From: a bacterium
GTDB taxonomy: Bacteria; Calditrichota; Calditrichia; RBG-13-44-9; J042
Reading direction: 5' to 3'
Assembly (NCBI GenBank): GCA_015485355.1
Contig: WFTQ01000089.1
Span: 54,264 to 118,263, forward strand
Length of the DNA: 64,000 nt
The position numbers and the translations under genes are program-made. Positions 1 through 62,942 of the stretch are shown in pieces (positions within the stretch are counted from its first letter, which is position 1; every line of letters starts with the position of its first letter). The notes beneath the pieces are model-generated. The model searched no databases, was not told the DNA's origin, and worked only from the letters and a program-made list of their open reading frames with translations.

Positions 1-913
1 AGGCCGAAAGAAAAGTGAGGTAAAGAAACATCTTGCTGTAGTAGCGCGTGTCTCCTTTTTTCCGGTAGAATCGGTATCCCAGGGGTAAAAAGCTCATCAC
101 GAACGGTTGAATCAGCAAGATATTGACCACGTTACCGATCTTGTAGCCGGTGCTGTACACACCGACCTGGTGATAACTGGTTAAAAGTTTCAGCAGGTAG
201 CGATCGCCCATATTTAAGAACATCCAGGCCATGCCTCCTATCACCAGAGGGGCTCCAAATCGGATGGTTTGCTTCAGGATGCGCACATCCCAGCGGCGGC
301 TCCACTCACGCCGCAATGCCAGTATCAGGCCCCCAAACAATACCAGTTCTCCGCAAACGGCGGCCAACAGAATACCCTCGATTTTCATCTGGAAATACAG
401 CAGGAAGATCAGATTGGCCGATAATAGCACCCCGAACTTGGCGATATTCAAGCTGGAATAAAGCACCGGTTGTTCTTTGGCCCGTAATACCCCCAAAAAA
501 TAGTTGTTTAACATTCGGAAAAAGACGATCACAAACAACAGCCGAAAATAGAGGCGGAAAGCATCGGGTTGAGAAAAATATCGGGCCACAACGGGGGAAA
601 GCATTTCGCCCACGGTCCACACACATGCGGCAACCACAAAAACAAAAAGGGATTGGGTGGTGAACAGGGCGCGTCGATCGACCTCGATTTCTTTTGCATG
701 ATAAAAGCGGATAAAGGCCTGGCTCTGGCCCAGGAGCAGCAGCTGGCCCAGAATCATGATGGTGATTTCCAGGATGCCCCAGATGCCGTACTCCGCGGGA
801 ACCAGTTTCTGGGTATACAGGGGCAGGAGAAGAAACCCCACCAGCTTTGTCGCCAGGGTCGAAAGGCTGTATATCGCTCCGTGCCGGAACGTGCGCTTAA
901 CCCGATCGAGCAT
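1..913 (-). CDS. Wzx-like oligosaccharide/polysaccharide flippase (MOP superfamily), partial: N-terminal ~304 aa, C-terminus lies off the window
   Basis: Manual minus-strand translation from ATG at 913..911: MLDRVKRTFRHGAIYSLSTLATKLVGFLLLPLYTQKLVPAEYGIWGILEITIMILGQ...IRFGAPLVIGGMAWMFLNMGDRYLLKLLTSYHQVGVYSTGYKIGNVV. This is a typical Wzx N-terminus and the conserved DRY/GxYS region. The frame stays open to position 1, so the ORF track does not list it. Confidence 0.6.
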   Translation of the reverse strand, partial: MLDRVKRTFRHGAIYSLSTLATKLVGFLLLPLYTQKLVPAEYGIWGILEITIMILGQLLLLGQSQAFIRFYHAKEIEVDRRALFTTQSLFVFVVAACVWTVGEMLSPVVARYFSQPDAFRLYFRLLFVIVFFRMLNNYFLGVLRAKEQPVLYSSLNIAKFGVLLSANLIFLLYFQMKIEGILLAAVCGELVLFGGLILALRREWSRRWDVRILKQTIRFGAPLVIGGMAWMFLNMGDRYLLKLLTSYHQVGVYSTGYKIGNVVNILLIQPFVMSFLPLGYRFYRKKGDTRYYSKMFLYLTFLSA

Positions 914-1874
914 GGTGGAATAGGTCCAGTCTTAAAATGAGTTTCCTGTAAAAAATCAATGCGTTTTTACGCAATTTTATCACCAACAACCCCATTAACA
1001 ACTGCAACACACGAAGGACCAGGCTAAAGGATATGCGAGTCGGTTCGACCGTGTATCCCCATCTCAGAAGAGGCCTTTTCAAGGCGATGTTCAAAATATC
1101 TTTATCCACATCCGAAAAGCAATGTTTCCACCGCCCGATTTTTCCTGTATCCAGGCTATGGTGGACATTGCTCTTCCAGTCTCTTTCCCAATCTAAATAT
1201 ACAGAAGACGTCTCAGCACCCGGAACCAAAATCGAACGCACGTCAATCGTAGAAACTTCCAGGAAATCCATCAATGCGTTCAACGTTGCCTCCGGTTCGC
1301 GGAGTAAGGGTTCGAATTTTACCTGATAGAAAACGTCCCTTCCCCATTCTTGCTGAAGACGCCGGCTTTCTTTTACAACTCTCATCCATCTATGGCAATT
1401 TTCTAAAATATTTTTAATGGTCCAGGGGACTTCCATCAAAGAGCATACCACGTCCCTTCCATCTCTCACAATATGGACAATCTTGGCGTCGGGATAGAAC
1501 TCCAGTATTTGATCAACATGAAAGATATGAGACGGGGTCTTTTCGCACAGCCGGGTCTTTCCCTCTTTCTGCAAAAACAGCGAGCCGATGACATTCAGCA
1601 CATCGATTTCTCTCCGGGGGGTTTTAGAAAAAATGTCGTAAAATTCTGCTTCGGTAAAACCCCCGGCACGAAAACAATCCTGTATTCTTGGGTGAGACAA
1701 AACGGACTGTAAATTGTTTCTACGGAAATAATAAGGCAGAATTTCGCTAAAAAAGTGCGTTTCGGGTGTCGAAACGATCTCCGGATGCCTGTTAAGCAGA
1801 CTGGCCAAAAGGGTTGTCCCGGATCGCTCGCACCCCACAATGAAAATGGGGCTTTTCAATTCCCATGATCCCAT
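897..1874 (-). CDS. PAPS-dependent sulfotransferase family protein
   Basis: N-terminal 5'-phosphosulfate-binding loop GCERSGTTLL. Length and overall pattern fit the sulfotransferase fold. Its stop overlaps the flippase start by 17 nt. Confidence 0.65.
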   Translation of the reverse strand: MGSWELKSPIFIVGCERSGTTLLASLLNRHPEIVSTPETHFFSEILPYYFRRNNLQSVLSHPRIQDCFRAGGFTEAEFYDIFSKTPRREIDVLNVIGSLFLQKEGKTRLCEKTPSHIFHVDQILEFYPDAKIVHIVRDGRDVVCSLMEVPWTIKNILENCHRWMRVVKESRRLQQEWGRDVFYQVKFEPLLREPEATLNALMDFLEVSTIDVRSILVPGAETSSVYLDWERDWKSNVHHSLDTGKIGRWKHCFSDVDKDILNIALKRPLLRWGYTVEPTRISFSLVLRVLQLLMGLLVIKLRKNALIFYRKLILRLDLFHHARSG

Positions 1875-1956
1875 AAATAGTGAAATAAATTTTCAAACCC
1901 TTAGAGTTTTATTAAATTCCACCAATGGAAATTAGTTTATCGAATATGAGAGTTGA

Positions 1957-2985
1957 ATGAAAGAGAAAAAGAAATTCAGAGGCCTCTTCATCTATACGGT
2001 CGATTCCAGCTTTGTGAAGAACGATTTCAAGATATTACACTCTTCCTTTTCCATAACCCCCTTTCAATTCCGACCGGACCGCTCGAAACTCAGAAACGTT
2101 GCGTCTCTCTTTGCATTCTTGGGGAAACACATATGGAAATCGCATTTTACTTACATATGGTTTGCCAGCACTCATGCGGTATTGCCGGTGCTTTTTTCCC
2201 GCCTTACCGGTAAGAAATCCTTTATCGTTTTGGGGGGATATGATGTGGCTCATTTACCGGAATTGCAATATGGTACATTCAGTAATAAATTTCGGACTTT
2301 CACCACACGAATGGCCACCTCGCTTGCCACTCACAACATCGCCGTATCCCAATTCGCTAAAAACAAGATCACCCAAAGATTTCCCTTTCTCAAAAAAAAC
2401 ACGACCGTTATTTACAATTGCATCGACCCGGAGATGTACGAACAATCCGGCCAAAAGCAAAAAGAAGACATTGTCTTAACCGTGGCGCTGGTGGACAGCG
2501 AACAGAGGCTGCGATTAAAAGGCATCGACTCCCTGTTGAAAGTGGCGTCTTCACTGCCTCACATTCAATTCATCGTGGTGGGCGTAGCCCCCGCCATTTC
2601 TCGAAAACTAAAGCCTGTGCCGCGTAACATGCAGCTAATCGAACCCTTGCCCTACTCTAAGCTCCTTGATTTCTACCGGCGATCGAAGGTCTATTGTCTG
2701 CTCTCGTTAACGGAATCGTTCGGCATGTCCGTTATCGAAGCCATGGTTAATTTATGTGTACCGGTTGTATCCAATGCGGGAGCCCTTCCGGAGCTTGTGG
2801 GGGACAAGGGATTCCTGGTCGACCCGGCCGATTTAGATGAAATAAGCCGGTCTATTGTTCAAGCATTCCATCGATATGATCAAATCGTCTCGGGTTGGGA
2901 AACGCACAGATTGTTTACGGCTTTTTCCTGTGACCGACGTCGAAAACAGCTCGTCCATTTGATTACAACGAAAACACGGAGGTAA
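1957..2985 (+). CDS. Glycosyltransferase family 4 (GT-B, group 1)
   Basis: C-terminal E-x7-E motif ESFGMSVIEAM, followed by VPVVSNAGALPELV, typical of GT1/GT4 retaining transferases. Confidence 0.7.
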   Translation: MKEKKKFRGLFIYTVDSSFVKNDFKILHSSFSITPFQFRPDRSKLRNVASLFAFLGKHIWKSHFTYIWFASTHAVLPVLFSRLTGKKSFIVLGGYDVAHLPELQYGTFSNKFRTFTTRMATSLATHNIAVSQFAKNKITQRFPFLKKNTTVIYNCIDPEMYEQSGQKQKEDIVLTVALVDSEQRLRLKGIDSLLKVASSLPHIQFIVVGVAPAISRKLKPVPRNMQLIEPLPYSKLLDFYRRSKVYCLLSLTESFGMSVIEAMVNLCVPVVSNAGALPELVGDKGFLVDPADLDEISRSIVQAFHRYDQIVSGWETHRLFTAFSCDRRRKQLVHLITTKTRR

Positions 2986-2986
2986 C

Positions 2987-3931
2987 ATGGGGCAAGAAAA
3001 AGGCCTTTCACTATCCGTTATTATCGCCACAAAAGATCGGTTTGAAGATCTGGCCAGATGTTTGAGGAGTTTAACAAACCAATCCGAACCCCCCGAAACG
3101 GTCATCATCGTCGACGCCAGCAAAAAAGAGGGATTAGAAAAAATCGCTAAACACATCATCGGGGAATCCTGTTCCATTAACCTTATATACGAGAAATCTC
3201 AACCCGGTTTGACGTATCAACGCAACAAGGGCCTGTCTCTATCCAGAGATGACCTTGTTCTATTCCTGGATGATGATGTCATTTTAGACGAACACTATAT
3301 CCGTGAACTCAAGAAAATTTTTCGGGAAGACATCGAAGGTAAGATCGGTGGCGCAACGGGGAAACTGATGAACATGTTCCACTTTCATCCGTTTTCCATC
3401 CTGATACGGAAAATGTTCTTTCTAAGTGAGCCCGGAAGGGGAGAGGTCAAAAAATCCGGTGCTCATAACTTAATTTCGGACCAATTGTCCCGGTTAACGG
3501 AAGTCGAATGGTTGCCTGGTTTTAATCAAGCGTATAGGAAAGAGGTCTTCCGGTTCGAAACATTCGATGAAAACATGTATGGCTACAGCTACCTGGAAGA
3601 TTTAGACTTTTCCTATCGGGTGGGGAAAAGGTATAAACTCGTCTATACTCCAAACGCGAGAATAATCCACTACTACAAAGATTCTCCCCAAACGCGTTTA
3701 AAATGGTACGAAAAACAAAAGATGTATATGGTTAATTATTATTACTTGTTTAAAAAACTTCTTCCTCAACGCCTGGACTATCAATTTTGCCATTATTGGT
3801 CCTATTTGGGTCAAATAATAAGAAGCCTTGTCTTACTCCGCAATTTAGGTGCTCTCATGGGCACCCTTCATGGAATATGGATTAACATCAGTGGTAAAAA
3901 TCCCTTGCTAAAAAAACTTGAATGCAAGTAA
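2987..3931 (+). CDS. Glycosyltransferase family 2 (GT-A)
   Basis: LSVIIATKDRFEDLARCL start and DxD-like FLDDDVIL motif. Translationally coupled to the upstream GT4 gene, with a 1-nt gap. Confidence 0.7.
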   Translation: MGQEKGLSLSVIIATKDRFEDLARCLRSLTNQSEPPETVIIVDASKKEGLEKIAKHIIGESCSINLIYEKSQPGLTYQRNKGLSLSRDDLVLFLDDDVILDEHYIRELKKIFREDIEGKIGGATGKLMNMFHFHPFSILIRKMFFLSEPGRGEVKKSGAHNLISDQLSRLTEVEWLPGFNQAYRKEVFRFETFDENMYGYSYLEDLDFSYRVGKRYKLVYTPNARIIHYYKDSPQTRLKWYEKQKMYMVNYYYLFKKLLPQRLDYQFCHYWSYLGQIIRSLVLLRNLGALMGTLHGIWINISGKNPLLKKLECK

Positions 3932-4002
3932 TTTCCCAAGAATTCGCCCTCTGTATTCATGAGTTCAACGGTGGACACCATCGTTTGGATTGATCCGACG
4001 GA

Positions 4003-4065
4003 TGAATGACGTCTTGCGCATTGTGAATGACGTCTTGCGCATTGAACTCTACGGGTAAGTACCGG
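4003..4065. repeat. Perfect tandem repeat, three copies of a 21-bp unit TGAATGACGTCTTGCGCATTG
   Basis: Read directly: the unit recurs at 4003..4023, 4024..4044 and 4045..4065 with no mismatches. It lies in the 150-bp gap between the convergent GT2 and sulfotransferase genes. Confidence 0.6.
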
Positions 4066-4082
4066 AAATGCCTTTTACCGGT

Positions 4083-4877
4083 TCACAGCCGATAACGGTC
4101 CAGGTTGAGGGAAGGACGGATTGCTCGGCTCAGGTCTTCGAAGGAGTACCCCAATGCTCGAGCAGCGTGTTCATACCGGTGCTTGATCCATTTCCGGTAC
4201 CAGGCGCTTAGCTCTTTCCATTGTTCGAGGTAGCCCGTATTGGCGTTCCTCACTTCGGTTTCCGGGTGGAAAGGGTCTACCTCGATCCACTGAAAAATCC
4301 GGAGAAAATGGTCTTTGGGGTTCAGGACAAAATCTTCGTAATAAATGATCCGGCAATGCACCAGGTGAGGCAGGTCCTCCATCAATAACCGATGGGCATG
4401 GAGCCAGTGACGAATCAGATAGATAAGGGGCCGTCTTTTGGCCCATTTCCGGGTTGCCATGGCCACCACGGCGGGATGACGCAAGATGACCAGAAAATAA
4501 CTTTCCGGGAAAAGGGCCTGTAAAAACCGCATCTGCACCAGATTCTTGGGGGATTTTTCCACCAGAACCGGTTTGGAAAAATCCCAGTAGTTACCCCATT
4601 CCCGAATCAATCGATCGCGATTCTCAGCCGTTACCAGGGCCGAGGTTTCCGTCAAGTGGGCCCGGCGATGGAAGGCAAAGCGGCCCGGCCCGCCCAGCTG
4701 CCGGGCCGTGGGAAAGACCGTTTGCAAATGCTGCCCCTCGTCTTCGGGCACACCGGTATTGTAAAAGCCGCTGATTTGAGGGTGTTGCCGGATACCCCGG
4801 TGCAAGATAGAGGTTCCACTCCGATGCAGACCGGCAATGAAAAGAATTCGCTGCTTTACTCCCCCGGAACCCATCAT
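4083..4877 (-). CDS. Sulfotransferase family protein (second copy)
   Basis: PSB-loop-like IAGLHRSGTSILHR near the N-terminus. Size is about 260 aa. Confidence 0.55.
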   Translation of the reverse strand: MMGSGGVKQRILFIAGLHRSGTSILHRGIRQHPQISGFYNTGVPEDEGQHLQTVFPTARQLGGPGRFAFHRRAHLTETSALVTAENRDRLIREWGNYWDFSKPVLVEKSPKNLVQMRFLQALFPESYFLVILRHPAVVAMATRKWAKRRPLIYLIRHWLHAHRLLMEDLPHLVHCRIIYYEDFVLNPKDHFLRIFQWIEVDPFHPETEVRNANTGYLEQWKELSAWYRKWIKHRYEHAARALGYSFEDLSRAIRPSLNLDRYRL

Positions 4878-4983: not shown

Positions 4984-7152
4984 TCATATTTTCATGCTCA
5001 GTTGAATTCTTCCCCGCTCCAGATCGACACTTATCACCTTGACCGTCACGGTGTCCCCCACCGCAACCACCTGATGGGGATCTCTCACATATTTCTCGGC
5101 CATCTGACTCACATGGACCAGGCCATCCCTTTTCACACCGATGTCTACAAACGCCCCAAAATCCACGACGTTTCGCACGGTCCCTTTCAGTACCATCCCT
5201 TCCCGCAAGTCCTCCATTTTCAGGACGTCACTCCGGAAAACGGGTGGGGGCATATCCTCCCTGGGATCCCGTCCCGGCTTTTCCAGATCGGTCAGGATGT
5301 CTTCCAAGGTGGGTATTCCCACCCCAACCTCCCGGGCCAGCGTTTCCAGCGGAATGGCCTCCTCCCGGATCCGCCGCCGCAACCGCCGCCATGCCGATTG
5401 ATCCTCCTCTATGCCAAACCGTTGCAACAGCTTCCGGGTGGCCTCGTACGACTCCGGATGGATACTGGTATTATCCAGAGGATTGTCTCCATCGGGAATA
5501 CGTAAAAACCCGGCCGCCTGCTGAAAGGCGATGGCGCCAACCCCGGGCACCTCCTTGAGTTGTTCCCGATTGCGAAACTTGCCCTGGGCGTCCCGATACT
5601 TCACAATGTTTTCCGCCGTCCGCGCCGTAAGTCCCGAAACATATCTTAATAAACTGGCCGAGGCTGTATTCATATCCACTCCCACCCGATTCACCGCGCT
5701 TTCCACCACAGCGTGTAAGGCCTCTCCCAGCCGTTTTTGATTCACATCGTGCTGGTACAGGCCGACACCAATATGTTTGGGATCGATCTTCACCAGTTCG
5801 GCCAGAGGATCCATCAATCGGCGGGCAATGGAGATGTTCCCCCGCATGCTGGCATCCAGATCGGGGAACTCTTGCTTGGCTACAGGGGAAGCCGAATACA
5901 CCGACGCCCCTGCTTCGTTCACGATGGTGTAAACCAGTTCCCGGCCACCGCCGTCCTTTATCTCTTGGATCAGCTCCGCCACCAGCCTTTCGGTTTCTCT
6001 GGAAGCGGTGCCATTGCCGATCGCAATGATATCGACGCCGTGCCGATCTATCAATCGCCGGAGAGTCGTTTTGGCCTCGAAAACCTGATTGTGCGGCGGA
6101 TGGGGATAGATGGTGCCGCCCTCCAGGTATTTTCCTGTCTCGTCGATGACCGCAACCTTGCAACCGGTGCGATAACCCGGATCGATGCCCAGGATGATTT
6201 TATTGCGTACCGGTGGCTGGAGGAGCAAATGCCACAAATTGCGGGCAAACACTGTAATCGCATGTTCATCGGCCCGCTCGGTTAATTCACCCCGCACCTC
6301 CCGTTCAATAGCCGGAAAAATCAAACGCTTATAACTATCCCGGATGGCTTCCTTCAGGTAAGAATGAAAAATGCATTTGCTGTTTTTTATATATCGCTCT
6401 TCAATGGCCTGAATAGCAACGCTCTCTTCGATTTCCAGGGACACCCGAAGCAATTTTTCGCGTTCACCTCGATTTATGGCCAGTATCCGATGGGGGGCCA
6501 CCCGTTTTACCGGCTCAGAATAATCGTAGTACAGTTCGTAATCGCTGCGCAGGGAGGGGTTTCGGGCCTCGCTCCGAAGAACGCCGCGTTGCCAGACCAG
6601 AGTCCGAATGCGCTTGCGCACCTCGGCATCATCGGAAACCCTTTCGGCAACAATATCCCGCGCACCGGCCAATGCCGCTTCGGTATCGGGAACGTCCTTT
6701 TCCGGGTCCACAAAAGGGCGGGCATACTCGTGGGCATCCCCCTCTTCCAAATCTTGCTTCAGCATCCGTTCCGCCAGGGGTTCTAATCCTCGCTGCCGAG
6801 CTATCGCCGCCCGGGTATGTTTCTTGGGCCGATAGGGCAAGTAGAGGTCTTCCAGCTCCTGCAATTTTACCGTGGACGCTATCCGGGCCCTTAACTCCGG
6901 AGTAAGCTTACCCTGGGCTTCAATGGACTGTAAGATCGTGACCTTCCGGGCTTCCAGCATGCGCAAATATTTTATGCGCTCCTGGATGGCGCGGATCTGA
7001 TCCTCATCCAACTTGCCCGTTACTTCCTTGCGGTAACGGGCAATAAACGGAACCGTATTCCCACTCTCCAACAGCTCTACGGTATTGGCCACCTGAATGG
7101 CGCGTAAACCCAGTTCTTGCGCGATCCGCTGATAAAAATCGCTCTCTTTCAT
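4984..7152 (-). CDS. tex: Transcription accessory protein Tex (YqgF/RuvC-like, HhH and C-terminal S1 domains)
   Basis: 722 aa. C-terminal S1 domain GMVLKGTVRNVVDFGAFVDIGVKRDGLVHVSQMAE...VKVISVDLERGRIQLSMK. N-terminal YRKEVTGKLDEDQIR Tex signature. Confidence 0.85.
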   Translation of the reverse strand: MKESDFYQRIAQELGLRAIQVANTVELLESGNTVPFIARYRKEVTGKLDEDQIRAIQERIKYLRMLEARKVTILQSIEAQGKLTPELRARIASTVKLQELEDLYLPYRPKKHTRAAIARQRGLEPLAERMLKQDLEEGDAHEYARPFVDPEKDVPDTEAALAGARDIVAERVSDDAEVRKRIRTLVWQRGVLRSEARNPSLRSDYELYYDYSEPVKRVAPHRILAINRGEREKLLRVSLEIEESVAIQAIEERYIKNSKCIFHSYLKEAIRDSYKRLIFPAIEREVRGELTERADEHAITVFARNLWHLLLQPPVRNKIILGIDPGYRTGCKVAVIDETGKYLEGGTIYPHPPHNQVFEAKTTLRRLIDRHGVDIIAIGNGTASRETERLVAELIQEIKDGGGRELVYTIVNEAGASVYSASPVAKQEFPDLDASMRGNISIARRLMDPLAELVKIDPKHIGVGLYQHDVNQKRLGEALHAVVESAVNRVGVDMNTASASLLRYVSGLTARTAENIVKYRDAQGKFRNREQLKEVPGVGAIAFQQAAGFLRIPDGDNPLDNTSIHPESYEATRKLLQRFGIEEDQSAWRRLRRRIREEAIPLETLAREVGVGIPTLEDILTDLEKPGRDPREDMPPPVFRSDVLKMEDLREGMVLKGTVRNVVDFGAFVDIGVKRDGLVHVSQMAEKYVRDPHQVVAVGDTVTVKVISVDLERGRIQLSMKI

Positions 7153-24671: not shown

Positions 24672-27230
24672 TTGCGTGGAATAGTCTTGACAACGGGAGC
24701 GGGGATCATACTGTTGGGGTGGCTGTCGGCCTTGCCGGCACAACGCCCTGCGATGTTACCCGTCGATACGGTTTGGGTGGACACCACCCGGACTTTGAAG
24801 ACGGAAGAACGATCCAGCGGCCTGGAGGGGCCCGTTAAATACTGGGCCGAGAATATCTATTTTTCTGTGAGGGGTAAAACGACCACGTTGATCGGTAATG
24901 TGAAGCTGGAATACCAGAATATTACCTTAACCGCTGGTAAGGTTGTCATCGATTGGCAACAGAATCGTCTGGTGGCCGAGGGGTTGCCGGATTCCACCGA
25001 CGCCTCCGGCAATGTGATCTATACCGATTTGCCGGTATTGACGGAGAAGGGTGACGAGCCCATCCAGGGGCGGCGTCTGGAATACGATTTCAGAAATCAG
25101 CGGGGAAAAATTCTGGTGGCTCATACCAAAATGGAGCCCGGATATTATAAGGGACAATTGATTAAAAAAATGGGGAAAAAGACCCTGCTCATTCGAGATG
25201 GGTATTTTACCACCTGCGAACTCCCCGATCATCCTCACTTTTATTTCAAAAGCAAAAAGATGCGTGTGGTCGTGAACAAACGGGCGGTGGCCAAACCGAT
25301 TGTTCTGTACATTGCCGATGTGCCCGTAGCGGCTGTTCCCTTCGGGGTGTTTCCCCTGGAGCGGGGACGTCGTTCCGGTTTTGTCATGCCCAAGTACGGG
25401 GAAAGCCGTTTCGGCGGACGTTACCTGAGTCAGTTTGGATACTATTGGGCGGCTTCCGATTACTGGGATGCGACCCTGCTGGCCGATTTTTATGAGAGAA
25501 CCGGTATGGCTTTTCAGGGGGAATTGCGGTACAAAAAGCGCTATTCTTTTAATGGGAACATTAACGGAGTGTACATGCCGCGGGACATCAGCACCGGCCG
25601 TCCTCTAAGGCGCTGGCGCATCAGCTTTACTCACTCTCAAAAATTGGGGCAAACGGCTACCCTTTCGGGCAGCGGCACCTTTGTCAGCGACCGAACGTTT
25701 CAGCAACAATTTTCCCAGGATATCCGACAACGCTTGAATCAGAGCTTGACCACCAACATCAATTTTCGGAAAAACTGGCCCGGGTCCAAAAATTCGTTGT
25801 CGGCTTCCTTTACCCGGGTGGAAAATCTGCAAACGGGTCAGATCGATTATGAATTTCCCAATGTAATCTTTTCCATGCCTTCCCGCAGCTTTTTCCCGGC
25901 CCGGAAGGGACAATCCCGTCGCTGGTACAACGATATTCGTTACAGTTACCGGACGAACCTGAAGTCCAAGGGAGTTATACCCGGGAAAGAGGGTGCCGCC
26001 ATCCGTCGCACCATTCGTTCGGGTTGGGTGCATAATGCCACGATCAGCTTTAACGCAAAGATTTTTCGCTATTTTTCCTTTCAACAGAGTGCCCGCTTTC
26101 AAGAATTATGGGTACCTCAATATCTGGAATATCGCTGGGTGGATTCTCTGAATACGGCGGTTCCGGACACGATCAACGCTTTCCGGGCCCGGCATACCTT
26201 TGGTTTAAACCTGGGAACCCGCACCAAGTTGTATGGCATCTGGAATGTGCCGGTGAGTCCCCTCCGGGCTATCCGGCACACGATGGAGCCCTCCGTCAGT
26301 TTTTCTTTTTCCCCCGATTTCACCGATCCGGCGTTTGGTTACGTACAGACGTTTCGCGATAGCACTGGAAGGCAGATCAAGAAAGACCGTTTCGCAGGCA
26401 ATATTTTTGGCGGCACCGCCAAAAGCGCGGTGCAAGGCCTGAGTATCGCTGTCACCAACCTTTTTCAGGGAAAATGGATTCGGAATAAGGAGGAGAAAAA
26501 GATCGATTTGTTTCGCGCAGAGCTGAGGACCTCGTACAATTTCTTAAGGGACAGTCTGAAATGGGGGGATATCCGTGTCAATATCAATAGCCTGTTGAGC
26601 CGCCGATTAAAGATGAATGCCGGGGCCAGGTATTCATTGTATCAGGCGGGAACGGGGGGGCGCGGTAAAGTGGACCGTTACGTGTGGGACGGAAAACGAT
26701 TCGCGTTGCCCCGTTTGCTGAACTGGAGTGTGCGGGTGAGCACCGATTTTCAGCTGAGGCCTCCGGAGCGGGAAGAAAAAAAAGAGGATAGAGTGGCCCG
26801 GGCGGATACCGCGGGGGTGATCGGTGGAGTGCCGTTGGGCGGCGGACCGCTGATTCAGGATATCACCCGGGATCCAGAGTTGGAGGCGTTAAGTCGCTTC
26901 AAGCTGCCCTGGCAACTGGATGGGGTGCTGGACTACCGGTATAGCTGGAGCGCCCCGGACTTCCGTTCTCAGAGTTTGAACGTCCAACTCAATGCCCGGG
27001 TGCAACTGACCCGCAACTGGCGGGTGAACTATAGTGCCCGGATCGATATTCTGAATAAAGAACTGAGCTATCAGCGTTTTGCTGTCTATCGGGACTTGCA
27101 TTGTTGGGAAATGAGCTTTTCCTGGCAACCGACTTTTGGATACTACCAGCTGGAAATTCGCGTAAAGGCGTCGGCCCTGAGGGATCTCAAGATCACGAAA
27201 ACCGCCGGCGGCCGGGCGGTTATCCGTTGA
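24672..27230 (+). CDS. LptD-like outer-membrane beta-barrel protein (OstA-like N-terminal domain)
   Basis: 852 aa. N-terminal OstA-like segment GKVVIDWQQNRLVAEG...GRRLEYDFRNQRGKIL. Long alternating beta-strand region. C-terminal aromatic-rich end. Confidence 0.55.
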   Translation: MRGIVLTTGAGIILLGWLSALPAQRPAMLPVDTVWVDTTRTLKTEERSSGLEGPVKYWAENIYFSVRGKTTTLIGNVKLEYQNITLTAGKVVIDWQQNRLVAEGLPDSTDASGNVIYTDLPVLTEKGDEPIQGRRLEYDFRNQRGKILVAHTKMEPGYYKGQLIKKMGKKTLLIRDGYFTTCELPDHPHFYFKSKKMRVVVNKRAVAKPIVLYIADVPVAAVPFGVFPLERGRRSGFVMPKYGESRFGGRYLSQFGYYWAASDYWDATLLADFYERTGMAFQGELRYKKRYSFNGNINGVYMPRDISTGRPLRRWRISFTHSQKLGQTATLSGSGTFVSDRTFQQQFSQDIRQRLNQSLTTNINFRKNWPGSKNSLSASFTRVENLQTGQIDYEFPNVIFSMPSRSFFPARKGQSRRWYNDIRYSYRTNLKSKGVIPGKEGAAIRRTIRSGWVHNATISFNAKIFRYFSFQQSARFQELWVPQYLEYRWVDSLNTAVPDTINAFRARHTFGLNLGTRTKLYGIWNVPVSPLRAIRHTMEPSVSFSFSPDFTDPAFGYVQTFRDSTGRQIKKDRFAGNIFGGTAKSAVQGLSIAVTNLFQGKWIRNKEEKKIDLFRAELRTSYNFLRDSLKWGDIRVNINSLLSRRLKMNAGARYSLYQAGTGGRGKVDRYVWDGKRFALPRLLNWSVRVSTDFQLRPPEREEKKEDRVARADTAGVIGGVPLGGGPLIQDITRDPELEALSRFKLPWQLDGVLDYRYSWSAPDFRSQSLNVQLNARVQLTRNWRVNYSARIDILNKELSYQRFAVYRDLHCWEMSFSWQPTFGYYQLEIRVKASALRDLKITKTAGGRAVIR

Positions 27231-37045: not shown

Positions 37046-38881
37046 TTAAGCGTTGAAATCGGTTCGGGCTATCCGAAGGGCGCCTTTCTGGTGTTTCTGG
37101 ATCAGTTTCAACATTTCCCCGATATCCAGGATCATGATTACCCGTCCGTCTCCCAGGATGGTGGATCCGGCAATTCCCGGAGTGTTTTTCAGGTATGCCC
37201 CTAACGGCTTAATCACAATTTCCTTCTGTCCTAAAAGGTCATCCACGACCAGTCCGAACACCCGATTGGCGATGCCAACCACAACGGTGTAAAACCTTTC
37301 CGGTTGGGCATTGCCCGAAACGCTGTAAATGTTGCGGATGTGAACCAGGGGCAGGATTTTTTCCCGCAAGCGGATCACTTCTTCCCCATGGATGGTGTGC
37401 ACTTCCTCGCGGGACGTGCGGACCACTTCGATGACCGAACTCAGAGGAACGGCAAAAACCTCCTGGGCCACCTGGACCAGCAACCCTTGGATGATGGCCA
37501 GGGTGAGCGGGAGTTTCAGGATGAATGTGGTGCCCACTCCCACCTGGGATTTGACAGTGATCATCCCATTTAATTTCGTGATGTTGGTTTTCACCACATC
37601 CATTCCCACGCCCCGTCCGGAAACGTTGGTCACTTTCTGGGCGGTGCTGAAGCCGGGCATGAAAATCAGATTGTAGACTTCCGCATCGGAAAGTTCTTTG
37701 GCGTCATCGGCACTGATAATGCCCTTCTCGATGGCTTTCCGTTTAATTTTTTCCGGATCAATGCCCCGTCCGTCATCTTCCACTTCAATAATGATATGAT
37801 TGCCTTCGTGGCCTGCGGCCAGGCGGATCATGCCTTTGCGGGGTTTGCCCAGGGTTTCCCGTTCGTCCGGGCTTTCTATGCCGTGATCCACGGAATTCCG
37901 GATGAGGTGAACCAGGGGATCGCTGATCTCTTCGATCACGGATTTGTCCAGCTCGGTCTCTTCCCCTTCCAGAATCAGATCGATCTCTTTCTGAAATTCC
38001 CGGGAAAGGTCCCTCACCAGGCGGGGGAATTTGTTAAAAATGCGGCCGATCTGAACCATGCGCGTTTTCATGACGGCCGATTGCAGCTCCGAGGTAATGA
38101 AGTCGATTTGAGCCGTGGTGTCGGCCAGTTCCTGGCGACTCGCTTCCGACTTCAGATTGTTGACGATCTGGGCCAGCCGATTGCGGCCCAGAACCAGTTC
38201 GCCGACCAGATTCATCAGGTTGTCCAGCCGCTCCACGTCCACCCGAATGGTGGAATCGATGACCTTTCCCAGACGATGACCGCGGGAAAGGTAACCGTCG
38301 GCTGTTTTTGAGTGTGTTTCGGGAGATTCCTGAACCGGGGTCGATTCGGCCGGCTGAGAGGATGAGGGGGCGGAGCGCCGCTTTTTTCGCCCGCGTTTCT
38401 TTCTCTTGGGGGTGGGTTCCTCGGGGGCACTTTGCCTTTCGGATGTTGGTTCGGTCGGTTCCGGCCCCTGGAGCTTCTGACCCTCCGCGATGGCGGTCAG
38501 CCTGGACAGCAGAGCGTCCAGAGGAATATCCTGAATATTGCGGTCGATAACCTGTTGCAACAGGGTTTTCATCTGATCATAGGCTTCCAGTAAGGTGTCC
38601 ATCATCCAGGGTTGAAAGGTCAGCTGACCTTTACGCATCTTGTTTAGCACGTCTTCGAAACGATGTGCCAGCGTGCTCATCTGATCGAAGCTTAAGAACC
38701 CCGAGGTGCCCTTGATGGTGTGTACCGATCGGAAAATGCGGTTAATTAGCTCCATATCGTCCGGCTGGCTTTCCAGAAGGACCAAATCCTGGTCCAAATT
38801 TTCCAGAATCTCCTGGGTTTCGACCACAAAACTATCCACAATTTCTAACATGTCTTCACTGAACATGGGATGCGGGCTCAT
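37046..38881 (-). CDS. cheA: Chemotaxis histidine kinase CheA
   Basis: P1/Hpt phospho-His HTIKGTSG. Lys/Arg/Pro-rich linker. HATPase region with GRGVGMDVV G-box. C-terminal CheW-like P5 domain. Confidence 0.85.
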   Translation of the reverse strand: MSPHPMFSEDMLEIVDSFVVETQEILENLDQDLVLLESQPDDMELINRIFRSVHTIKGTSGFLSFDQMSTLAHRFEDVLNKMRKGQLTFQPWMMDTLLEAYDQMKTLLQQVIDRNIQDIPLDALLSRLTAIAEGQKLQGPEPTEPTSERQSAPEEPTPKRKKRGRKKRRSAPSSSQPAESTPVQESPETHSKTADGYLSRGHRLGKVIDSTIRVDVERLDNLMNLVGELVLGRNRLAQIVNNLKSEASRQELADTTAQIDFITSELQSAVMKTRMVQIGRIFNKFPRLVRDLSREFQKEIDLILEGEETELDKSVIEEISDPLVHLIRNSVDHGIESPDERETLGKPRKGMIRLAAGHEGNHIIIEVEDDGRGIDPEKIKRKAIEKGIISADDAKELSDAEVYNLIFMPGFSTAQKVTNVSGRGVGMDVVKTNITKLNGMITVKSQVGVGTTFILKLPLTLAIIQGLLVQVAQEVFAVPLSSVIEVVRTSREEVHTIHGEEVIRLREKILPLVHIRNIYSVSGNAQPERFYTVVVGIANRVFGLVVDDLLGQKEIVIKPLGAYLKNTPGIAGSTILGDGRVIMILDIGEMLKLIQKHQKGALRIARTDFNA

Positions 38882-39771
38882 GATCCGTGCTCCTTGTTTT
38901 CTCCGGAAAGGTGGTTGTTCGATGGGGTTGGCGCTGGTTTTTCGTTCCGGGCTGCGGGATCGGAAGCCGGAGGGTTGGTCTGAAAGAGCTGATCGATTTC
39001 TTCTTGTAAAAAAGAGGGATTTCCCGGTGTCGGCGGAGCGGCGAAAATGGCGTCCGCGGTTTGTTGCCGGTCGGCGTTGTTGATATAACTGGCCTGGGGA
39101 TCAAATGGGAGAGGCTGGATGGAAGAGACCTCGGTTTCGGCCGCGGGTCCCGGGGTTTGGAGTTGATTCAACAGGTGTTCGATGCGCTCGCGCACGGATT
39201 CGATCAGGTGGTTAACCGCGGCGATTTGTTGAGAGGTAATGTCCTGTACCTGAAGAGAAAACATGATATCGCTGGCACTGTCTTTCACCTGGGTGAGGTT
39301 GTTTTGCGCTCGGGTGATGGATCGGCGCAACGATTTCAGGGTGGCCTTCCTTTGTTGCTGGATGGCTTGCACGCTTTGAATCCATTTCTCGGAGGCACGC
39401 TCTTCTGCGGGCCGGGCCAGTAAGCGGTTGACCTTCCGTTCCAGACGGCTCAGTTTGGCATGGATTTCCCTGGATTGACTCAACCCCGACTGGATCTCTC
39501 CTAATTTAAACAAAACATCGTCCAGGATGTCCAGGATCTCGTTCGTCGCCAGTTCTGTAGCGCGGGTGACGTCGTTTAATTGAGAAGATGCCCGGGGCAT
39601 TTTCGAGGAACTTTCATGCAGGGATTGATTCATCTCCTGCATAAGCGGCACAATGTTCTGAACAAAGCTGAACAGCTCTTCCAGAAACGGGATCACCCGC
39701 TGGCCGAAAATGAACAACGCCTTCAGCTCGTTTATCCTCTCCAGAATGCGTTCCATCTGTTGTGGATTCAT
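38878..39771 (-). CDS. CheZ-like CheY-P phosphatase (coiled-coil protein carrying the D-x3-Q catalytic motif)
   Basis: SLQVQDITSQQIAAV (D177...Q181) mirrors the E. coli CheZ active site AQDFQDLTGQVI (D143...Q147). Long helical heptad pattern. Sits between cheA and cheY with 4-nt overlaps. Confidence 0.5.
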   Translation of the reverse strand: MNPQQMERILERINELKALFIFGQRVIPFLEELFSFVQNIVPLMQEMNQSLHESSSKMPRASSQLNDVTRATELATNEILDILDDVLFKLGEIQSGLSQSREIHAKLSRLERKVNRLLARPAEERASEKWIQSVQAIQQQRKATLKSLRRSITRAQNNLTQVKDSASDIMFSLQVQDITSQQIAAVNHLIESVRERIEHLLNQLQTPGPAAETEVSSIQPLPFDPQASYINNADRQQTADAIFAAPPTPGNPSFLQEEIDQLFQTNPPASDPAARNEKPAPTPSNNHLSGENKEHGS

Positions 39772-40151
39772 TTTCCCCCCTTGGTTGAATGAATGACCTG
39801 TTCAATTTTTTCTTTTATGGCTTGTAGAGTAAACGGTTTGACAATGTAGCCGCTGACCTGATGTTGATACGCTTTCCGCACGTCGTCTTGTTTATCGCGT
39901 ACGGTCACCATGATCACGGGAATATGCGAGGTGTGCTCGTGGCTGCGGATCGTGCGAATCAGTTCCAGACCGTTCATTTCCGGCATGTTCCAGTCAGTGA
40001 TGATCAAGTCCACGGGTTCCTTTTCCAGAAATTGCCAGGCGGTTTGGCCGTCGGGCGCTTCCAGGATGTGTGTGGCTCCCAATGTTTTTAATACGTTCCC
40101 CAGAATGCGCCGCACGATCACCGAATCTTCCACAATCAGACATCTCATCAT
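39768..40151 (-). CDS. cheY: Chemotaxis response regulator CheY
   Basis: 127 aa single REC domain. Acidic pocket CLIVEDSVIVRR..., phospho-Asp in LIITDWNMPEMNG, conserved K in YIVKPF. Confidence 0.8.
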   Translation of the reverse strand: MMRCLIVEDSVIVRRILGNVLKTLGATHILEAPDGQTAWQFLEKEPVDLIITDWNMPEMNGLELIRTIRSHEHTSHIPVIMVTVRDKQDDVRKAYQHQVSGYIVKPFTLQAIKEKIEQVIHSTKGGK

Positions 40152-40152
40152 A

Positions 40153-40518
40153 TCAGTTGATATATTTTGAAACCTCGTATTGAATTCGTTTTTGGCCGAA
40201 AGGTTTGATCAGGTACGAATTGGCGCCCAATTGCATGCCTCGTTGAATATCCTTTTCATCGTCCAGGGAAGACAGGATAATGACCGGGATTTCTGCGTAA
40301 TCGTTGTCTTCGCGAATGGTCTTCAGCAGTTCGAAACCATCCATGTTGGGCATGTTCAGATCGGTGATGATCAGATCCACTTTTTCCCGGGGAAGTTTCT
40401 CCAGGGCCTCCATCCCATCGCGGGCAGCCACCACCCGAAAGCCTTTGGCCCTCAGGGCGAATGTGAGAAACTTGCGGATGGATTCCGAATCATCGACGAC
40501 CATGATGACCTTATGCAT
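40153..40518 (-). CDS. Second CheY-like single-domain response regulator
   Basis: IMVVDDSESIRK...LIITDLNMPNMDGFE...YLIKPF. Start set at MHKVIM; the ORF track extends 19 codons upstream. Confidence 0.75.
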   Translation of the reverse strand: MHKVIMVVDDSESIRKFLTFALRAKGFRVVAARDGMEALEKLPREKVDLIITDLNMPNMDGFELLKTIREDNDYAEIPVIILSSLDDEKDIQRGMQLGANSYLIKPFGQKRIQYEVSKYIN

Positions 40519-41392
40519 AGTGGCACTCCTTCTTGTACAGAATTGTCTTAGAAAAATGAACCGGTTTAAAGGCATGAGAGATGCCGTAGAGGGATTCAGA
40601 ATAGCCCAGCAGCAGGTATCCGCCGGGGTTCAGGCTGTCGTATAGGGAATTGACGACCTGCCGTTTGGAACGCTCGTCGAAGTAGAGCAGCACATTGGCA
40701 CAGATGATCACGTCCATTCCCCGAATCTGCTGCATGGCCAGGCGGTCCACCAGATTCATCTGGCGGAAGTGAACCATCCGGCGAATCTCGGGAACGATCT
40801 GAAAGAAGTTCCCGTGCGGACGGAAATAGCGCTGGAGCCATTCGGGAGCAATTTTCCGGACGGCGTATTCCCGGTAATACCCTTGTTGGGCTTTTTGAAT
40901 GACCTGGCTGTTTATGTCCGTTGCCAGAATTTCCAGCCGTATGTCCGCAAGGAGGTGCCGGAATTTCTCGCGCAATAGAATGGCGATGGTGTAGGGTTCT
41001 TCGCCGGTGGAGCAGGCCGCGCTCCAGATGCGTACCACCCGTCCCGGTCTATGGCGTGCCTGTTCCAGCAACGGAGGGAAAACCCCGCGTTCCAGAGCTT
41101 CCAGCTGAGCCTCGTTCCGAAAAAAGAACGTCTCGTTGACGGTAATCTGATTGATTAGATGTTGCAGCTCACCATTCATCAGACCGTTCTGAATATTGTG
41201 AACATAGGTGTCGAAGTCCTTTAGTTTTAAGGCTTTCAACCGCTGGTATAAGCGGTTCTCCAGAAAGTATTTCTTATTGTCCGGAAAGTAGATACCGGTC
41301 TGCCGGTAAATGAAGTCCCGTAAACGAGAGAACGCCTGCTCGGACAGGCTTACGTCCGGACTGCTCAATTCGATTTTCGTTAATATACCCAT
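40511..41392 (-). CDS. cheR: Chemotaxis protein methyltransferase CheR
   Basis: CheR N-terminal helical domain (FSRLRDFIYRQTGIYF). SAM-MTase region RIWSAACSTGEEPYTIAILL and ILATDINSQVIQKA. Confidence 0.8.
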   Translation of the reverse strand: MGILTKIELSSPDVSLSEQAFSRLRDFIYRQTGIYFPDNKKYFLENRLYQRLKALKLKDFDTYVHNIQNGLMNGELQHLINQITVNETFFFRNEAQLEALERGVFPPLLEQARHRPGRVVRIWSAACSTGEEPYTIAILLREKFRHLLADIRLEILATDINSQVIQKAQQGYYREYAVRKIAPEWLQRYFRPHGNFFQIVPEIRRMVHFRQMNLVDRLAMQQIRGMDVIICANVLLYFDERSKRQVVNSLYDSLNPGGYLLLGYSESLYGISHAFKPVHFSKTILYKKECHYA

Positions 41393-41430
41393 CCCAGATG
41401 GCCTTCCATGGTTGTTTCAACCGTTGTTGC

Positions 41431-42750
41431 TTACCCGGAAATTTCCGGATTGTTAAGGGCCTGTCGAACGGTTTCCCGAGGGAGGAGCTGTTCGCCTTTC
41501 TCATGCAAAATTTCCAGGGCGTAATTCTGGATCGAGGGATCGGGGTCTTTTAAAGCGGCCAGCACCAGCTGCCCCAGGCAGGGAAAATCCATCCCTCGGG
41601 CAATTTCCATGACGGCCATTTTCGTTTCATCGTTCAACTCCATAAAATTCTGTTCAATATAGTGCAGCGCTTCCTGAATTTCCTCGAATTGGCAATCCAC
41701 CTTCTGCTCATCGGATAAATGGGCAATCAGCCCGATGATAAACTGGCTTCCGGCATCGATATTCAATTGTCGAGCCTGCATGTTTCGAACCAGCGCCGGT
41801 ATGATTCGAAACCCGCTGCGTAAAAAAACCTGGAATATCAACAGGTCCAGCTCTTCGTCCAGGCCGATTTTGGGAATCAGGTATTCCGGCGATGCGTCCG
41901 CCGGGAAAAACAGCAATCCCTGTACGGCGGCCTTCAGGTAGTTTACATCCAGGTCATCCAGCATCTGGATGAAGTACGGTTTAAGTGACTCGGGCAATTT
42001 GGGGGGATTGGCCGCCGATCGGAGGCTGTTGACAATGGCTTGAAGAATCACCGGTCGAGCCAGTGCGTTAACGCGTTCGGCCTCACGGATCAGCAGACCC
42101 AACAAAGAAGCATCCTGTTTTTCGGCGATTGCTTCGGCGGCGGCAAGTTGAACCACCGGGTCTTCGTCTTGCAAGGCGGTTTCGAAAAAGGCGTTGTCCA
42201 CCCGATGGGGAAAATGACGGACGGCGGCAACCACATTGGGTCGCACATAGGGTTTCTCCTGGTAGAGGTCCAGTAACCGCTCGCTGTAGTCTTCCAGGCC
42301 GAGCATGCCGATGGCATCCACGGCGGCGCAGATGACATTGGGATCGGGGTCCGCCAGGCGTCCGGCAATCCGGGCACCCAGGGATTGGGCCGGCATTTGG
42401 GCTAATAAATCGATGGCGAATTTCCGCACATCTTTATTGGGGTGGTCGATGTAGTCGGCCAGGCTGTCGACCGCAGGGGCCCCGATTTTGATCAATAAAT
42501 CCCCTGCCAGATTGCGTACCACAATGTTGTTGCTGGTAATGAACGCCGCCAACCGCTGGATGACTTCCGGCATGGGGTGGGAAAGCACAAATTGAGCCGC
42601 GGCGTCTCGCACCCCCCGGTCGCTGTCTTCCAGAAGACCGGTAATTTGCACCGCAACGTCCGGTGAACAGTCCTGTTCGAAGAATGTTTCTATGGTTTCC
42701 CGCCGCCGGGTGGGATCGGGATCTTGCAATAATGGTAAATGACGTGCCAT
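41431..42750 (-). CDS. HEAT-repeat (PBS-lyase-type) protein, terminal gene of the che operon
   Basis: Nine or more degenerate HEAT/PBS repeats (RRETIETFFEQ..., VRDAAAQFVLSH..., VRKFAIDLLAQM..., VICAAVDAIGML...). Confidence 0.6.
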   Translation of the reverse strand: MARHLPLLQDPDPTRRRETIETFFEQDCSPDVAVQITGLLEDSDRGVRDAAAQFVLSHPMPEVIQRLAAFITSNNIVVRNLAGDLLIKIGAPAVDSLADYIDHPNKDVRKFAIDLLAQMPAQSLGARIAGRLADPDPNVICAAVDAIGMLGLEDYSERLLDLYQEKPYVRPNVVAAVRHFPHRVDNAFFETALQDEDPVVQLAAAEAIAEKQDASLLGLLIREAERVNALARPVILQAIVNSLRSAANPPKLPESLKPYFIQMLDDLDVNYLKAAVQGLLFFPADASPEYLIPKIGLDEELDLLIFQVFLRSGFRIIPALVRNMQARQLNIDAGSQFIIGLIAHLSDEQKVDCQFEEIQEALHYIEQNFMELNDETKMAVMEIARGMDFPCLGQLVLAALKDPDPSIQNYALEILHEKGEQLLPRETVRQALNNPEISG

Positions 42751-49527: not shown

Positions 49528-49545
49528 ATGGCACGAAAATTGTAA

Positions 49546-61491: not shown

Positions 61492-61572
61492 GCGGGGCAT
61501 GGAAAAGGGATCGCGGCGGCCGCTTTTTCTCACCGGGCAAGCAAAGAGGAGAAACGGAGTGACCATTTCCCC

Positions 61573-62697: not shown

Positions 62698-62942
62698 TGT
62701 GTTCCCCCGGCTCCGCCGTTTTACTGAAAAGGGGTATGCATTCCTTTTCAACAATTCCGGAGCCCTTTGAATGAGGAGGCCTTTCCGCGGTTTTCCTTCC
62801 GCAGGGCGTCCAGGGAGTCAATAGGGCTCAAGATTTTTAAAATTTTTGCAAAATTAGGGAAAAAGGGCTCGAAAACGCCCCGTTTTTCTCAAGATTATTA
62901 CCGGTAGTGTCGATTCTGACAGAAAAAAGAGGGGGTGCAGGC

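Follow-up and report, generated by a model that had tools for sequence, protein, structure and literature searches.

At one end of a stretch of DNA from an uncultured bacterium of the Calditrichia, two sulfotransferase genes lie on either side of a pair of glycosyltransferase (GT) genes, beside a gene for a polysaccharide flippase. Does this arrangement encode the synthesis of a sulfated glycan, and how did its AT-rich core arise? The stretch, here called the window, comprises 64,000 nucleotides of contig WFTQ01000089.1 (positions 54,264 to 118,263 of the forward strand; assembly GCA_015485355.1), and coordinates are those of the window unless another contig is named. A first-pass annotation of positions 1–4877 had proposed a sulfated-glycan biosynthesis cluster with a lower-GC signature. 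On balance, we think that these positions are the variable half of a surface-glycan locus of about 9.3 kb, lying between the genes for Tex and an acyl-CoA dehydrogenase, and that its product is most likely a sulfated sugar chain on the cell surface. The original proposal thus looks reasonable in the light of domains, motifs for 3′-phosphoadenosine 5′-phosphosulfate (PAPS) binding, predicted folds, gene neighbourhoods and synteny, and it stands as a prediction by association.

Gene content and organization

Genes were called by listing open reading frames (ORFs) and translating them in frame, followed by Pfam and NCBIfam scans. All five genes were found where the first-pass annotation had placed them. 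On the minus strand, the 5′ part of a gene for a Wzx/PST-type MOP flippase (1–913) begins with an ATG at 913 and runs off position 1, leaving 304 codons visible (Polysacc_synt, 6e-20; Polysacc_synt_3). It is preceded on the same strand by the gene for a putative PAPS-type sulfotransferase of 325 aa, ST1 (897–1874; Sulfotransfer_3, 4e-38). The plus strand carries genes for a GT4-family (GT-B) glycosyltransferase of 342 aa (1957–2985; Glycos_transf_1, 2e-17; Glyco_trans_1_4), predicted to be soluble with no transmembrane (TM) segment, and a GT2-family (GT-A) glycosyltransferase of 314 aa (2987–3931; Glycos_transf_2, 7e-19), which also lacks TM segments. The second sulfotransferase, ST2 (4083–4877, minus strand; Sulfotransfer_3, 1e-20), has 264 aa and is predicted to be soluble. 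The remaining listed ORFs of positions 1–4877 are shadow frames of these five genes. The next gene beyond ST2 encodes Tex, a housekeeping RNA-binding protein (4984–7152, minus strand).

The genes fall into three transcription units rather than one. The ST1 stop overlaps the Wzx start by 17 nt; GT4 and GT2 are separated by a 1-nt spacer and diverge from ST1 across an AT-rich intergenic region of 82 bp (1875–1956), presumed to be the promoter region for both units; ST2 converges on GT2 and follows Tex, which is on the same strand, at a distance of 106 nt. Scans for sigma-70 promoters and terminators gave counts at or below the shuffled expectation and were hence uninformative.

The sequence upstream of window position 1 was read from a near-identical NCBI contig of 146.6 kb (L001; 17 mismatches in 11,874 nt against the window), and ORFs in the distal part of the window were annotated by Pfam; 73 kb were examined overall. 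The exact ST1 protein is encoded on six contigs that are mutually 99.6–99.98% identical. Upstream of position 1 come, in order, the remainder of the Wzx gene, a GT4-like gene, a gene for an 859-aa protein, an acyl-CoA dehydrogenase gene and a gene for an S8 peptidase with a tail of the type IX secretion system (T9SS) type. The locus therefore comprises seven genes between Tex and the acyl-CoA dehydrogenase. The first-pass annotation had presumed that the cluster continues upstream with Wzy, a chain-length determinant and a priming transferase; it does continue, with the rest of Wzx and the GT4-like and 859-aa genes, and the three predicted functions are not there.

The full Wzx protein (L001 10962–12434) has 490 aa and about 12 predicted TM segments, and matches PF01943 and PF13440. 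The nearest curated model is that of the holdfast flippase HfsF. A MurJ- or SpoVB-type flippase was rejected on model scores (MurJ, 26 bits against a cut-off of 235), in keeping with the earlier assignment to the Wzx/PST type. The GT4-like protein has 438 aa (Glyco_trans_4_4). The 859-aa protein (L001 13756–16335, approx. 1.9–4.5 kb upstream of window position 1) is a membrane protein with about 11 TM segments. It has hundreds of homologues, conserved across the Calditrichia at 40–77% identity, many of which carry PF09586 (YfhO) or PF10131, and these are named ‘YfhO family protein [Calditrichia / Calditrichaeota]’ by their sources; the same names point to the Calditrichia as the lineage of the host. 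We refer to it below as YfhO-like. Its gene is always paired with a GT4-like gene of approximately 435 aa, often beside an acyl-CoA dehydrogenase. Among the locus genes there is no PF04932-like match to a Wzy polymerase or O-antigen ligase, and the YfhO-like protein is the sole polytopic candidate for such a function.

Two sulfotransferases of different subfamilies

By motifs and predicted fold, ST1 appears to be a PAPS-type sulfotransferase. In an alignment of ST1 with 39 homologues (40 sequences), the 5′-phosphosulfate-binding (5′-PSB) P-loop is present as G14-C-E-R17-S-G-T-T, with R17, S18, G19 and T21 invariant, and aligns with the GxPRSGTT loop of TPST. The 3′-phosphate-binding (3′-PB) motif (R-x7-S) is complete, R137-DGRDVVC-S145, with R137, D138, R140 and S145 invariant, and aligns with RDGRASVHS of TPST. 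K112 is also invariant and pairs with the TPST catalytic lysine, while E38 pairs with the catalytic Glu. ST1 was modelled with AlphaFold2 (AF2) with high confidence (predicted local distance difference test (pLDDT) 92.3, predicted template modelling score (pTM) 0.88). A Foldseek search of the PDB with this model gave 125 matches at E ≤ 1e-3, and the top 50 listed are all PAPS sulfotransferases: the best folds are TPST1/2, followed by CurM/OLS, Stf and heparan-sulfate sulfotransferases. A hydrophobic helix at the C-terminus (residues approx. 281–299) may serve as a membrane anchor.

The closest relative of ST1 outside the species is only 37% identical (P0002). The closest informative relative, P0003, sits in a cluster of the order GT2-ST-ST-sulfatase-like-epimerase-GT2-...-Wzx (L009; ST, sulfotransferase). 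Orthology of that cluster with the window locus was rejected: the Wzx, GT2 and second sulfotransferase are not close, and the two are alike in gene content alone. Plasmid matches to ST1 include pSYSM of Synechocystis 6803, where ST1 is 28% identical over 206 aa (E 3e-24) to XssE, the matched gene being named xssE by gene order.

ST2 was aligned with 40 homologues. Its P-loop is present (G16-L-H-R19-S-G-T-S, with R19, S20, G21 and T22 invariant in the 40 homologues), and further invariant residues of the subfamily are E47-G-Q, E107-K108 and R133-H-P. At the 3′-PB site R133 is invariant, and the position of the TPST serine (R+8) is Ala141, near-invariant in the subfamily and followed by a near-invariant Thr142. 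Because these two residues are near-invariant across the subfamily, the alignment indicates that the atypical motif is a trait of the whole subfamily and not a lesion of the ST2 gene. The AF2 model (pLDDT 93.7, pTM 0.91) has its best Foldseek matches among PAPS sulfotransferases, namely TPST2, the CurM sulfotransferase, Stf1 and heparan-sulfate 3-O-sulfotransferase, the Stf1/Stf9 type being represented too. The first-pass annotation had called both enzymes PAPS-type. This is borne out for ST1 by complete 5′-PSB and 3′-PB motifs. For ST2 it is supported by the P-loop and fold; at the 3′-PB site the arginine is kept and the canonical serine is not.

We considered whether ST1 and ST2 are paralogues and rejected this, since their similarity is confined to the P-loop and they belong to different subfamilies. 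Likewise, the similarity of ST2 to XssA is confined to the PB region. NoeE was the sole NCBIfam model matched by ST1 and ST2 (39.5 and 30 bits, against a cut-off of 500). The ST2 subfamily is large, numbering 2052 cluster representatives at E ≤ 1e-3, of which 418 reach E ≤ 1e-30. It occurs at a flat 44–53% identity in very distant lineages (loci L011–L090), with hosts including Bacillus cytotoxicus, B. pseudomycoides, Virgibacillus, many Actinomycetota, Acidobacteriota and Planctomycetota and one Thermoplasmatota archaeon, and certain members are fused within proteins of 500–1100 aa. The flat identity across distant lineages, together with the fusions, suggests a mobile, strongly constrained enzyme family.

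Gene neighbourhoods of the sulfotransferase families

To characterize the genomic context of the two families, ORFs within two genes of each homologue were scanned against Pfam. Around ST1 homologues in 38 metagenomic loci, 130 ORFs included 17 GT4, nine GT2, five Wzx, five sulfotransferase, four Wzy_C and three heparinase II/III-like proteins. For ST2, 35 genomes from many phyla yielded 127 ORFs, among them 13 sulfotransferases, five Wzx, four GT4, two GT2, two Bac_transf and two Wzy_C proteins. The control was a set of 102 ORFs from the same ST2 loci, at a distance of 7 kb or more, which held three sulfotransferases and no Wzx family within the listed top 25; these distant ORFs still hold sugar-nucleotide enzymes, as expected for large polysaccharide regions. 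Guilt by association thus supports a glycan as the predicted acceptor.

Conservation of the locus in other Calditrichia-type contigs

The YfhO-like/GT4-like pair is conserved beside acyl-CoA dehydrogenase in other Calditrichia-type contigs, while the genes that follow the pair vary. The full set of Wzx, GT4-like and YfhO-like genes was found in two further contigs, L175 and L176, with the GT4-GT2 pair kept in L175 only. The order in L175 (7340–15320) is fumarase, GT4-GT2-ST-Wzx, GT4-like-YfhO, acyl-CoA dehydrogenase; that in L176 (2587–16123) is ST-GT9-MT-MT-Wzx ... GT4-like-YfhO (MT, methyltransferase). Identities between L175 and the window are 49% for GT2 and 32% for GT4 (both full length), 45% for Wzx and 53% for YfhO. 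A 66-aa fragment at the end of L091, the contig with the nearest YfhO relative (77% identity), was considered as a Wzx C-terminus and rejected; the contig stops there.

ST1 and ST2 themselves are absent from L175 and L176 and from two contigs with the YfhO/GT4-like pair, L092 and L093. The sulfotransferase of L175 (238 aa; Sulfotransfer_4, above the Pfam cut-off) has a GSGRSGT loop and an R-x7-S motif and occupies the same position as ST1, directly before Wzx, and that of L176 has 301 aa and belongs to PF13469. Neither has detectable pairwise similarity to ST1 or ST2. Since sulfotransferases that differ in Pfam type or show no detectable similarity occupy the same type of locus, sulfation may be a recurring property of the locus, supplied by interchangeable sulfotransferases.

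Base composition of the locus

The stretch from about 900 to 4000 had been described as AT-richer than surroundings of 55–60% GC. The dip is real: GC content is 43.9% at positions 897–3931 and averages 53.3% over the window, and no other 3-kb stretch of the 73 kb is as low (mean 53.2%, standard deviation (sd) 2.5%, approx. −3.6 sd). The surroundings are closer to 53% than to the values first quoted. By gene, GC content is 45.1% for ST1, 46.6% for GT4 and 41.4% for GT2, and the GC content at third codon positions of these genes (0.51, 0.55 and 0.47, respectively) gives the three lowest values among 50 ORFs of at least 150 aa (0.62 ± 0.04). The chance that three adjacent genes would be the three lowest of 50 is approximately 48/19600. 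In codon usage, too, GT2 deviates most among the 50 ORFs, followed by ST1, and GT2 has the lowest overall GC content of the 50. The difference in GC is significant. The low-GC signature is however limited to ST1, GT4 and GT2 and does not extend to the cluster as a whole, the rest being host-like (Wzx, 53.0%; ST2, 54.6%; GT4-like, 55.7%; YfhO-like, 51.7%).

The neighbours of the low-GC block include no mobility domains, and there is no tRNA and no flanking repeat. An origin by a mobile element was accordingly rejected, there being no tRNA, integrase or transposase, or flanking repeats. A comparison of strains for presence or absence of the block was uninformative, as all six near-identical contigs carry it. 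In L175, where GT2, GT4 and Wzx have syntenic counterparts, the whole locus has 30–41% GC against 49–51% in its flanks. Because that locus is also AT-richer than its surroundings, low GC may be intrinsic to this locus in the lineage.

Proposed pathway and alternative explanations

We propose that GT4 and GT2, possibly with the 438-aa GT4-like enzyme, would extend a short oligosaccharide on a polyprenyl-phosphate carrier at the cytoplasmic face of the inner membrane, starting from the product of an initiating transferase that would be encoded elsewhere. ST1 and ST2, as predicted PAPS-dependent enzymes of unrelated subfamilies, would then place sulfate esters on the lipid-linked sugar in the cytoplasm, where PAPS should be available. 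ST1 would sit in the membrane by its C-terminal tail, its translation coupled to that of Wzx, and ST2 would be soluble. The Wzx-type flippase would carry the sulfated unit to the periplasmic face. There, the YfhO-like protein, a candidate GT-C enzyme, might polymerize the unit or transfer it to the final acceptor (polysaccharide, lipopolysaccharide (LPS) or protein), which is the least certain step. In this scheme the nature of the acceptor, the sequence of events, the part played by the YfhO-like protein and the source of PAPS are inferences.

Several observations weigh against a sulfated surface glycan as the product. The locus is a credible candidate, predicted by association. Neither the locus nor the ORFs examined across the 73 kb include a Wzy, a chain-length determinant (polysaccharide co-polymerase, PCP/Wzz) or outer-membrane polysaccharide export (OPX) protein, or a PF02397/PF00953 match for an initiating phosphoglycosyl transferase, which may be encoded elsewhere in the genome. 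The first-pass annotation had suggested looking for PAPS-synthesis genes; no ATP sulfurylase or adenosine 5′-phosphosulfate (APS) kinase was found among the ORFs examined in the 73 kb. One paper treats such genes (cysNDC) within a cluster as a hallmark of sulfated-polysaccharide loci (PMC11641403), one that this locus does not share. Searches of Pfam, NCBIfam and the PDB with the 859-aa protein itself gave no match. In L092 and L093 the YfhO/GT4-like pair is accompanied by neither sulfotransferases nor Wzx, and may therefore form a system of its own. As for the sulfotransferases, the closest solved structures to both are protein-tyrosine and not carbohydrate sulfotransferases, P0002 is not in a glycan cluster, and ST2 lacks, by alignment, the canonical 3′-PB serine and could belong with Tex instead of the glycan genes.

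Some of these points could be taken to mean that the seven genes are two or three unrelated neighbouring units, in which ST2 is Tex-linked or stands alone, the YfhO/GT4-like pair is a separate envelope glycosylation system and only ST1–Wzx and GT4–GT2 cooperate. The three transcription units fit such a division, as do the independent occurrence of the pair in L092 and L093 and the host-like GC of ST2, which has no counterpart in L175 or L176. We nevertheless consider it unlikely: the ST2 census shows that genes of this family most often adjoin another sulfotransferase (13/127), two sulfotransferases of differing subfamilies share one cluster in both xss and wps-1 (see below), and Wzx, sulfotransferase and YfhO occur together in three Calditrichia-type loci and in Pontiella. 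A different objection concerns the acceptor, since ST1 and ST2 might act on protein or peptide tyrosines, as TPST and RaxST do, or on a lipid or small metabolite, with GT adjacency being incidental. Their best PDB matches in sequence and fold (TPST1/2, then the polyketide sulfotransferases CurM/OLS and Stf), the TPST-like arrangement of catalytic Glu and Lys and the position of P0002 outside glycan clusters would all suit a non-glycan substrate. PF13469 however also includes the carbohydrate sulfotransferases NodH and NoeE (PMC11625862), and around members of both families GTs, Wzx, Wzy_C and sugar-nucleotide enzymes prevail. ST1 is homologous to XssE of the synechan cluster and its translation is coupled to that of Wzx, and the surroundings offer neither a candidate peptide substrate nor genes for type I secretion. 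On this evidence a non-glycan acceptor is improbable. Least probable is that the sulfotransferase genes are inactive relics, or that the organism cannot make PAPS, so that no sulfated product is formed. This would account for the PB serine missing from ST2 and the lack of PAPS-synthesis genes in the 73 kb. Neither ORF is disrupted, however, and their sequences differ little, if at all, among the six contigs. Their catalytic and PAPS-binding residues are conserved, and PAPS genes usually lie elsewhere in the genome; the Ser-to-Ala change is common to a large conserved subfamily (418 representatives at E < 1e-30), which argues for function.

The remaining alternative concerns history rather than function, namely that the ST1-GT4-GT2 block is a recent foreign island, inserted from outside the lineage into a resident Wzx/YfhO locus. 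The anomaly in composition and codon usage is strong and sharply bounded. L175 has, in the place corresponding to ST1, a sulfotransferase of another Pfam type that shows no detectable pairwise similarity to it, and ST1 has no relative above 37% identity outside the species. We regard a foreign island as possible, though not likely, because L175 has, at the same locus, counterparts of GT2 and GT4 that align over their full length and have diverged to about the same extent as Wzx and YfhO, the L175 locus is itself AT-rich, and neither integrase, transposase, tRNA nor flanking repeats were found. Horizontal acquisition, as first suggested, is thus only partly supported, and of the two readings it is the weaker: composition and codon usage favour it, and the syntenic GT2 and GT4 counterparts, together with the lack of mobility genes, tRNA and flanking repeats, do not. 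The low GC is better matched by cassette exchange among lower-GC Calditrichia, or by a locus-specific bias, than by a single import from a foreign phylum. In our best reading, the AT-rich block of ST1, GT4 and GT2 serves the locus as an exchangeable cassette for specificity, which has probably been swapped among lower-GC Calditrichia rather than brought in as a foreign island.

Taking the sulfated-glycan reading further, it is conceivable, if rather unlikely, that the Calditrichia, and perhaps further groups such as the Kiritimatiellia, hand a cytoplasmically sulfated, Wzx-flipped, lipid-linked oligosaccharide to a YfhO-type GT-C enzyme in place of Wzy/WaaL, which would polymerize it or attach it to the envelope, with a swappable sulfotransferase module. 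The idea of such a module comes from the three differing sulfotransferase types at the same locus in three genomes. If true, sediment bacteria would possess a previously undescribed route to sulfated surface glycoconjugates that depends on Wzx and YfhO. The recurrent combination of Wzx, sulfotransferase and YfhO-like protein without Wzy is the one aspect of the locus that could exceed the ordinary.

Other features of the window

The convergent spacer between GT2 and ST2 holds a perfect tandem duplication of the 21-nt sequence TGAATGACGTCTTGCGCATTG (4003–4044, plus strand), which is unique in the window, with none expected. The number of copies varies between strains, with one in L002 and two in L001 and L003–L005.

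An LptD-family outer-membrane protein is encoded at 24672–27230 (PF19838, 1.6e-107). It implies a diderm organism with LPS transport, and LPS or O-antigen is therefore open as an acceptor of the sulfated unit. A chemotaxis group (37046–42750, minus strand), comprising CheA, a CheZ-like phosphatase, CheR and a HEAT-repeat protein, is unrelated to the glycan locus. At 47911–50847, the gene for a Ser/Thr protein kinase that ends in a PEGA domain is followed by one for a Kelch-repeat protein whose tail is of the FlgD-Ig/T9SS type; the T9SS-type C-terminal domains of this protein and of the upstream S8 peptidase are consistent with the FCB group. An operon for a xanthine-dehydrogenase-like molybdoenzyme (57771–62697) encodes a FAD/2Fe-2S subunit, a subunit binding the molybdenum cofactor and XdhC, and is followed by an H-NOX (haem-NO-binding) protein (62907–63482).

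Comparison with known systems

Sulfated bacterial polysaccharides are described in recent papers as rare outside the cyanobacteria, with cases accumulating from Vibrio, Pontiella and possibly Actinoplanes. Clusters of this kind are therefore already known, and what is plausibly new in our prediction is the phylum, where none has been reported before; a literature search found no paper linking Calditrichia with sulfotransferases. A recurring sulfotransferase-bearing glycan locus would extend the trait to the abundant, mostly uncultured Calditrichia of marine sediments. It would bear on sulfur and carbon cycling, as sulfated exopolymers are recalcitrant, metal-binding matrix material, and would enlarge the range of carbohydrate sulfotransferases on which biotechnology can draw. 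By itself the window has modest practical value, in the form of two candidate enzymes that are intact and well modelled and a compact locus of seven genes that might be expressed in another host.

Among individual enzymes, TPST1/2 and RaxST include the closest solved structures and have the P-loop Arg, catalytic Glu and Lys and 3′-PB Arg in common with the window enzymes. Identity is however only 16–24%, the acceptor-binding regions are not conserved, and the context here is one of GTs and Wzx with no peptide or type I secretion system genes. The rhizobial enzymes NodH, NoeE, LpsS and KpsS offer a likeness in the PAPS-dependent sulfation of lipid-linked or surface glycans. They are not orthologues, NoeE scoring far below its equivalog cut-off, and act on Nod factors, LPS and K-antigen in symbiosis. 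In the teichoic acid systems of Firmicutes, CsbB/YfhO and GtlA/GtlB, a large polytopic protein of the YfhO family likewise stands beside cytoplasmic GTs, which suggests transfer from a lipid-linked donor at the outer face. Those systems add single sugars and use a GtrB-like C55-P-monosaccharide synthase with a GtrA-like flippase and not Wzx, whereas the window GT2 has no TM segments and the 859-aa protein falls below every YfhO model.

The capsule of Vibrio sp. KMM 8419, a sulfated polysaccharide defined by nuclear magnetic resonance (PMC11641403), is similar in that sulfotransferase genes are embedded in a polysaccharide biosynthesis locus, but that locus is ABC-transporter-dependent and has its own cysNDC for PAPS, neither of which applies to the window locus (PMC11641403). 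The wps-1 cluster of Actinoplanes missouriensis combines two sulfotransferases of different families with Wzx, as here, and differs in having Wzy and Wzz, which the window locus lacks (PMC13390465). Pontiella sulfatireligans F21 (Kiritimatiellia), an anaerobic marine bacterium, demonstrably produces sulfated exopolymers (van Vliet et al. 2020, PMC7356697). Its putative cluster for a sulfated glycosaminoglycan-like polymer is larger, with approximately eight GTs, an aminotransferase, gmd, gtrA and a single sulfotransferase, and resembles the window locus in its inventory of GT4, GT2, a TuaB/Wzx-like protein, a PF13469 sulfotransferase and yfhO (PMC7356697).

The best-studied analogue is the xss cluster of Synechocystis sp. 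PCC 6803, which produces the sulfated exopolysaccharide synechan, a chemically characterized product (Maeda et al. 2021, PMC8205485). The xss cluster has Wzy, a PCP, a priming GT, eight GTs and regulators; the window locus has two or three GTs and, in place of these functions, the YfhO-like protein, and the PB region is all that relates ST2 to XssA. The two are nevertheless alike in carrying two sulfotransferases of distinct subfamilies among GT2/GT4 genes and Wzx, one of which, ST1, is homologous to XssE (PMC8205485), and in both sulfation is presumed to take place on the lipid-linked repeat unit before it is flipped.

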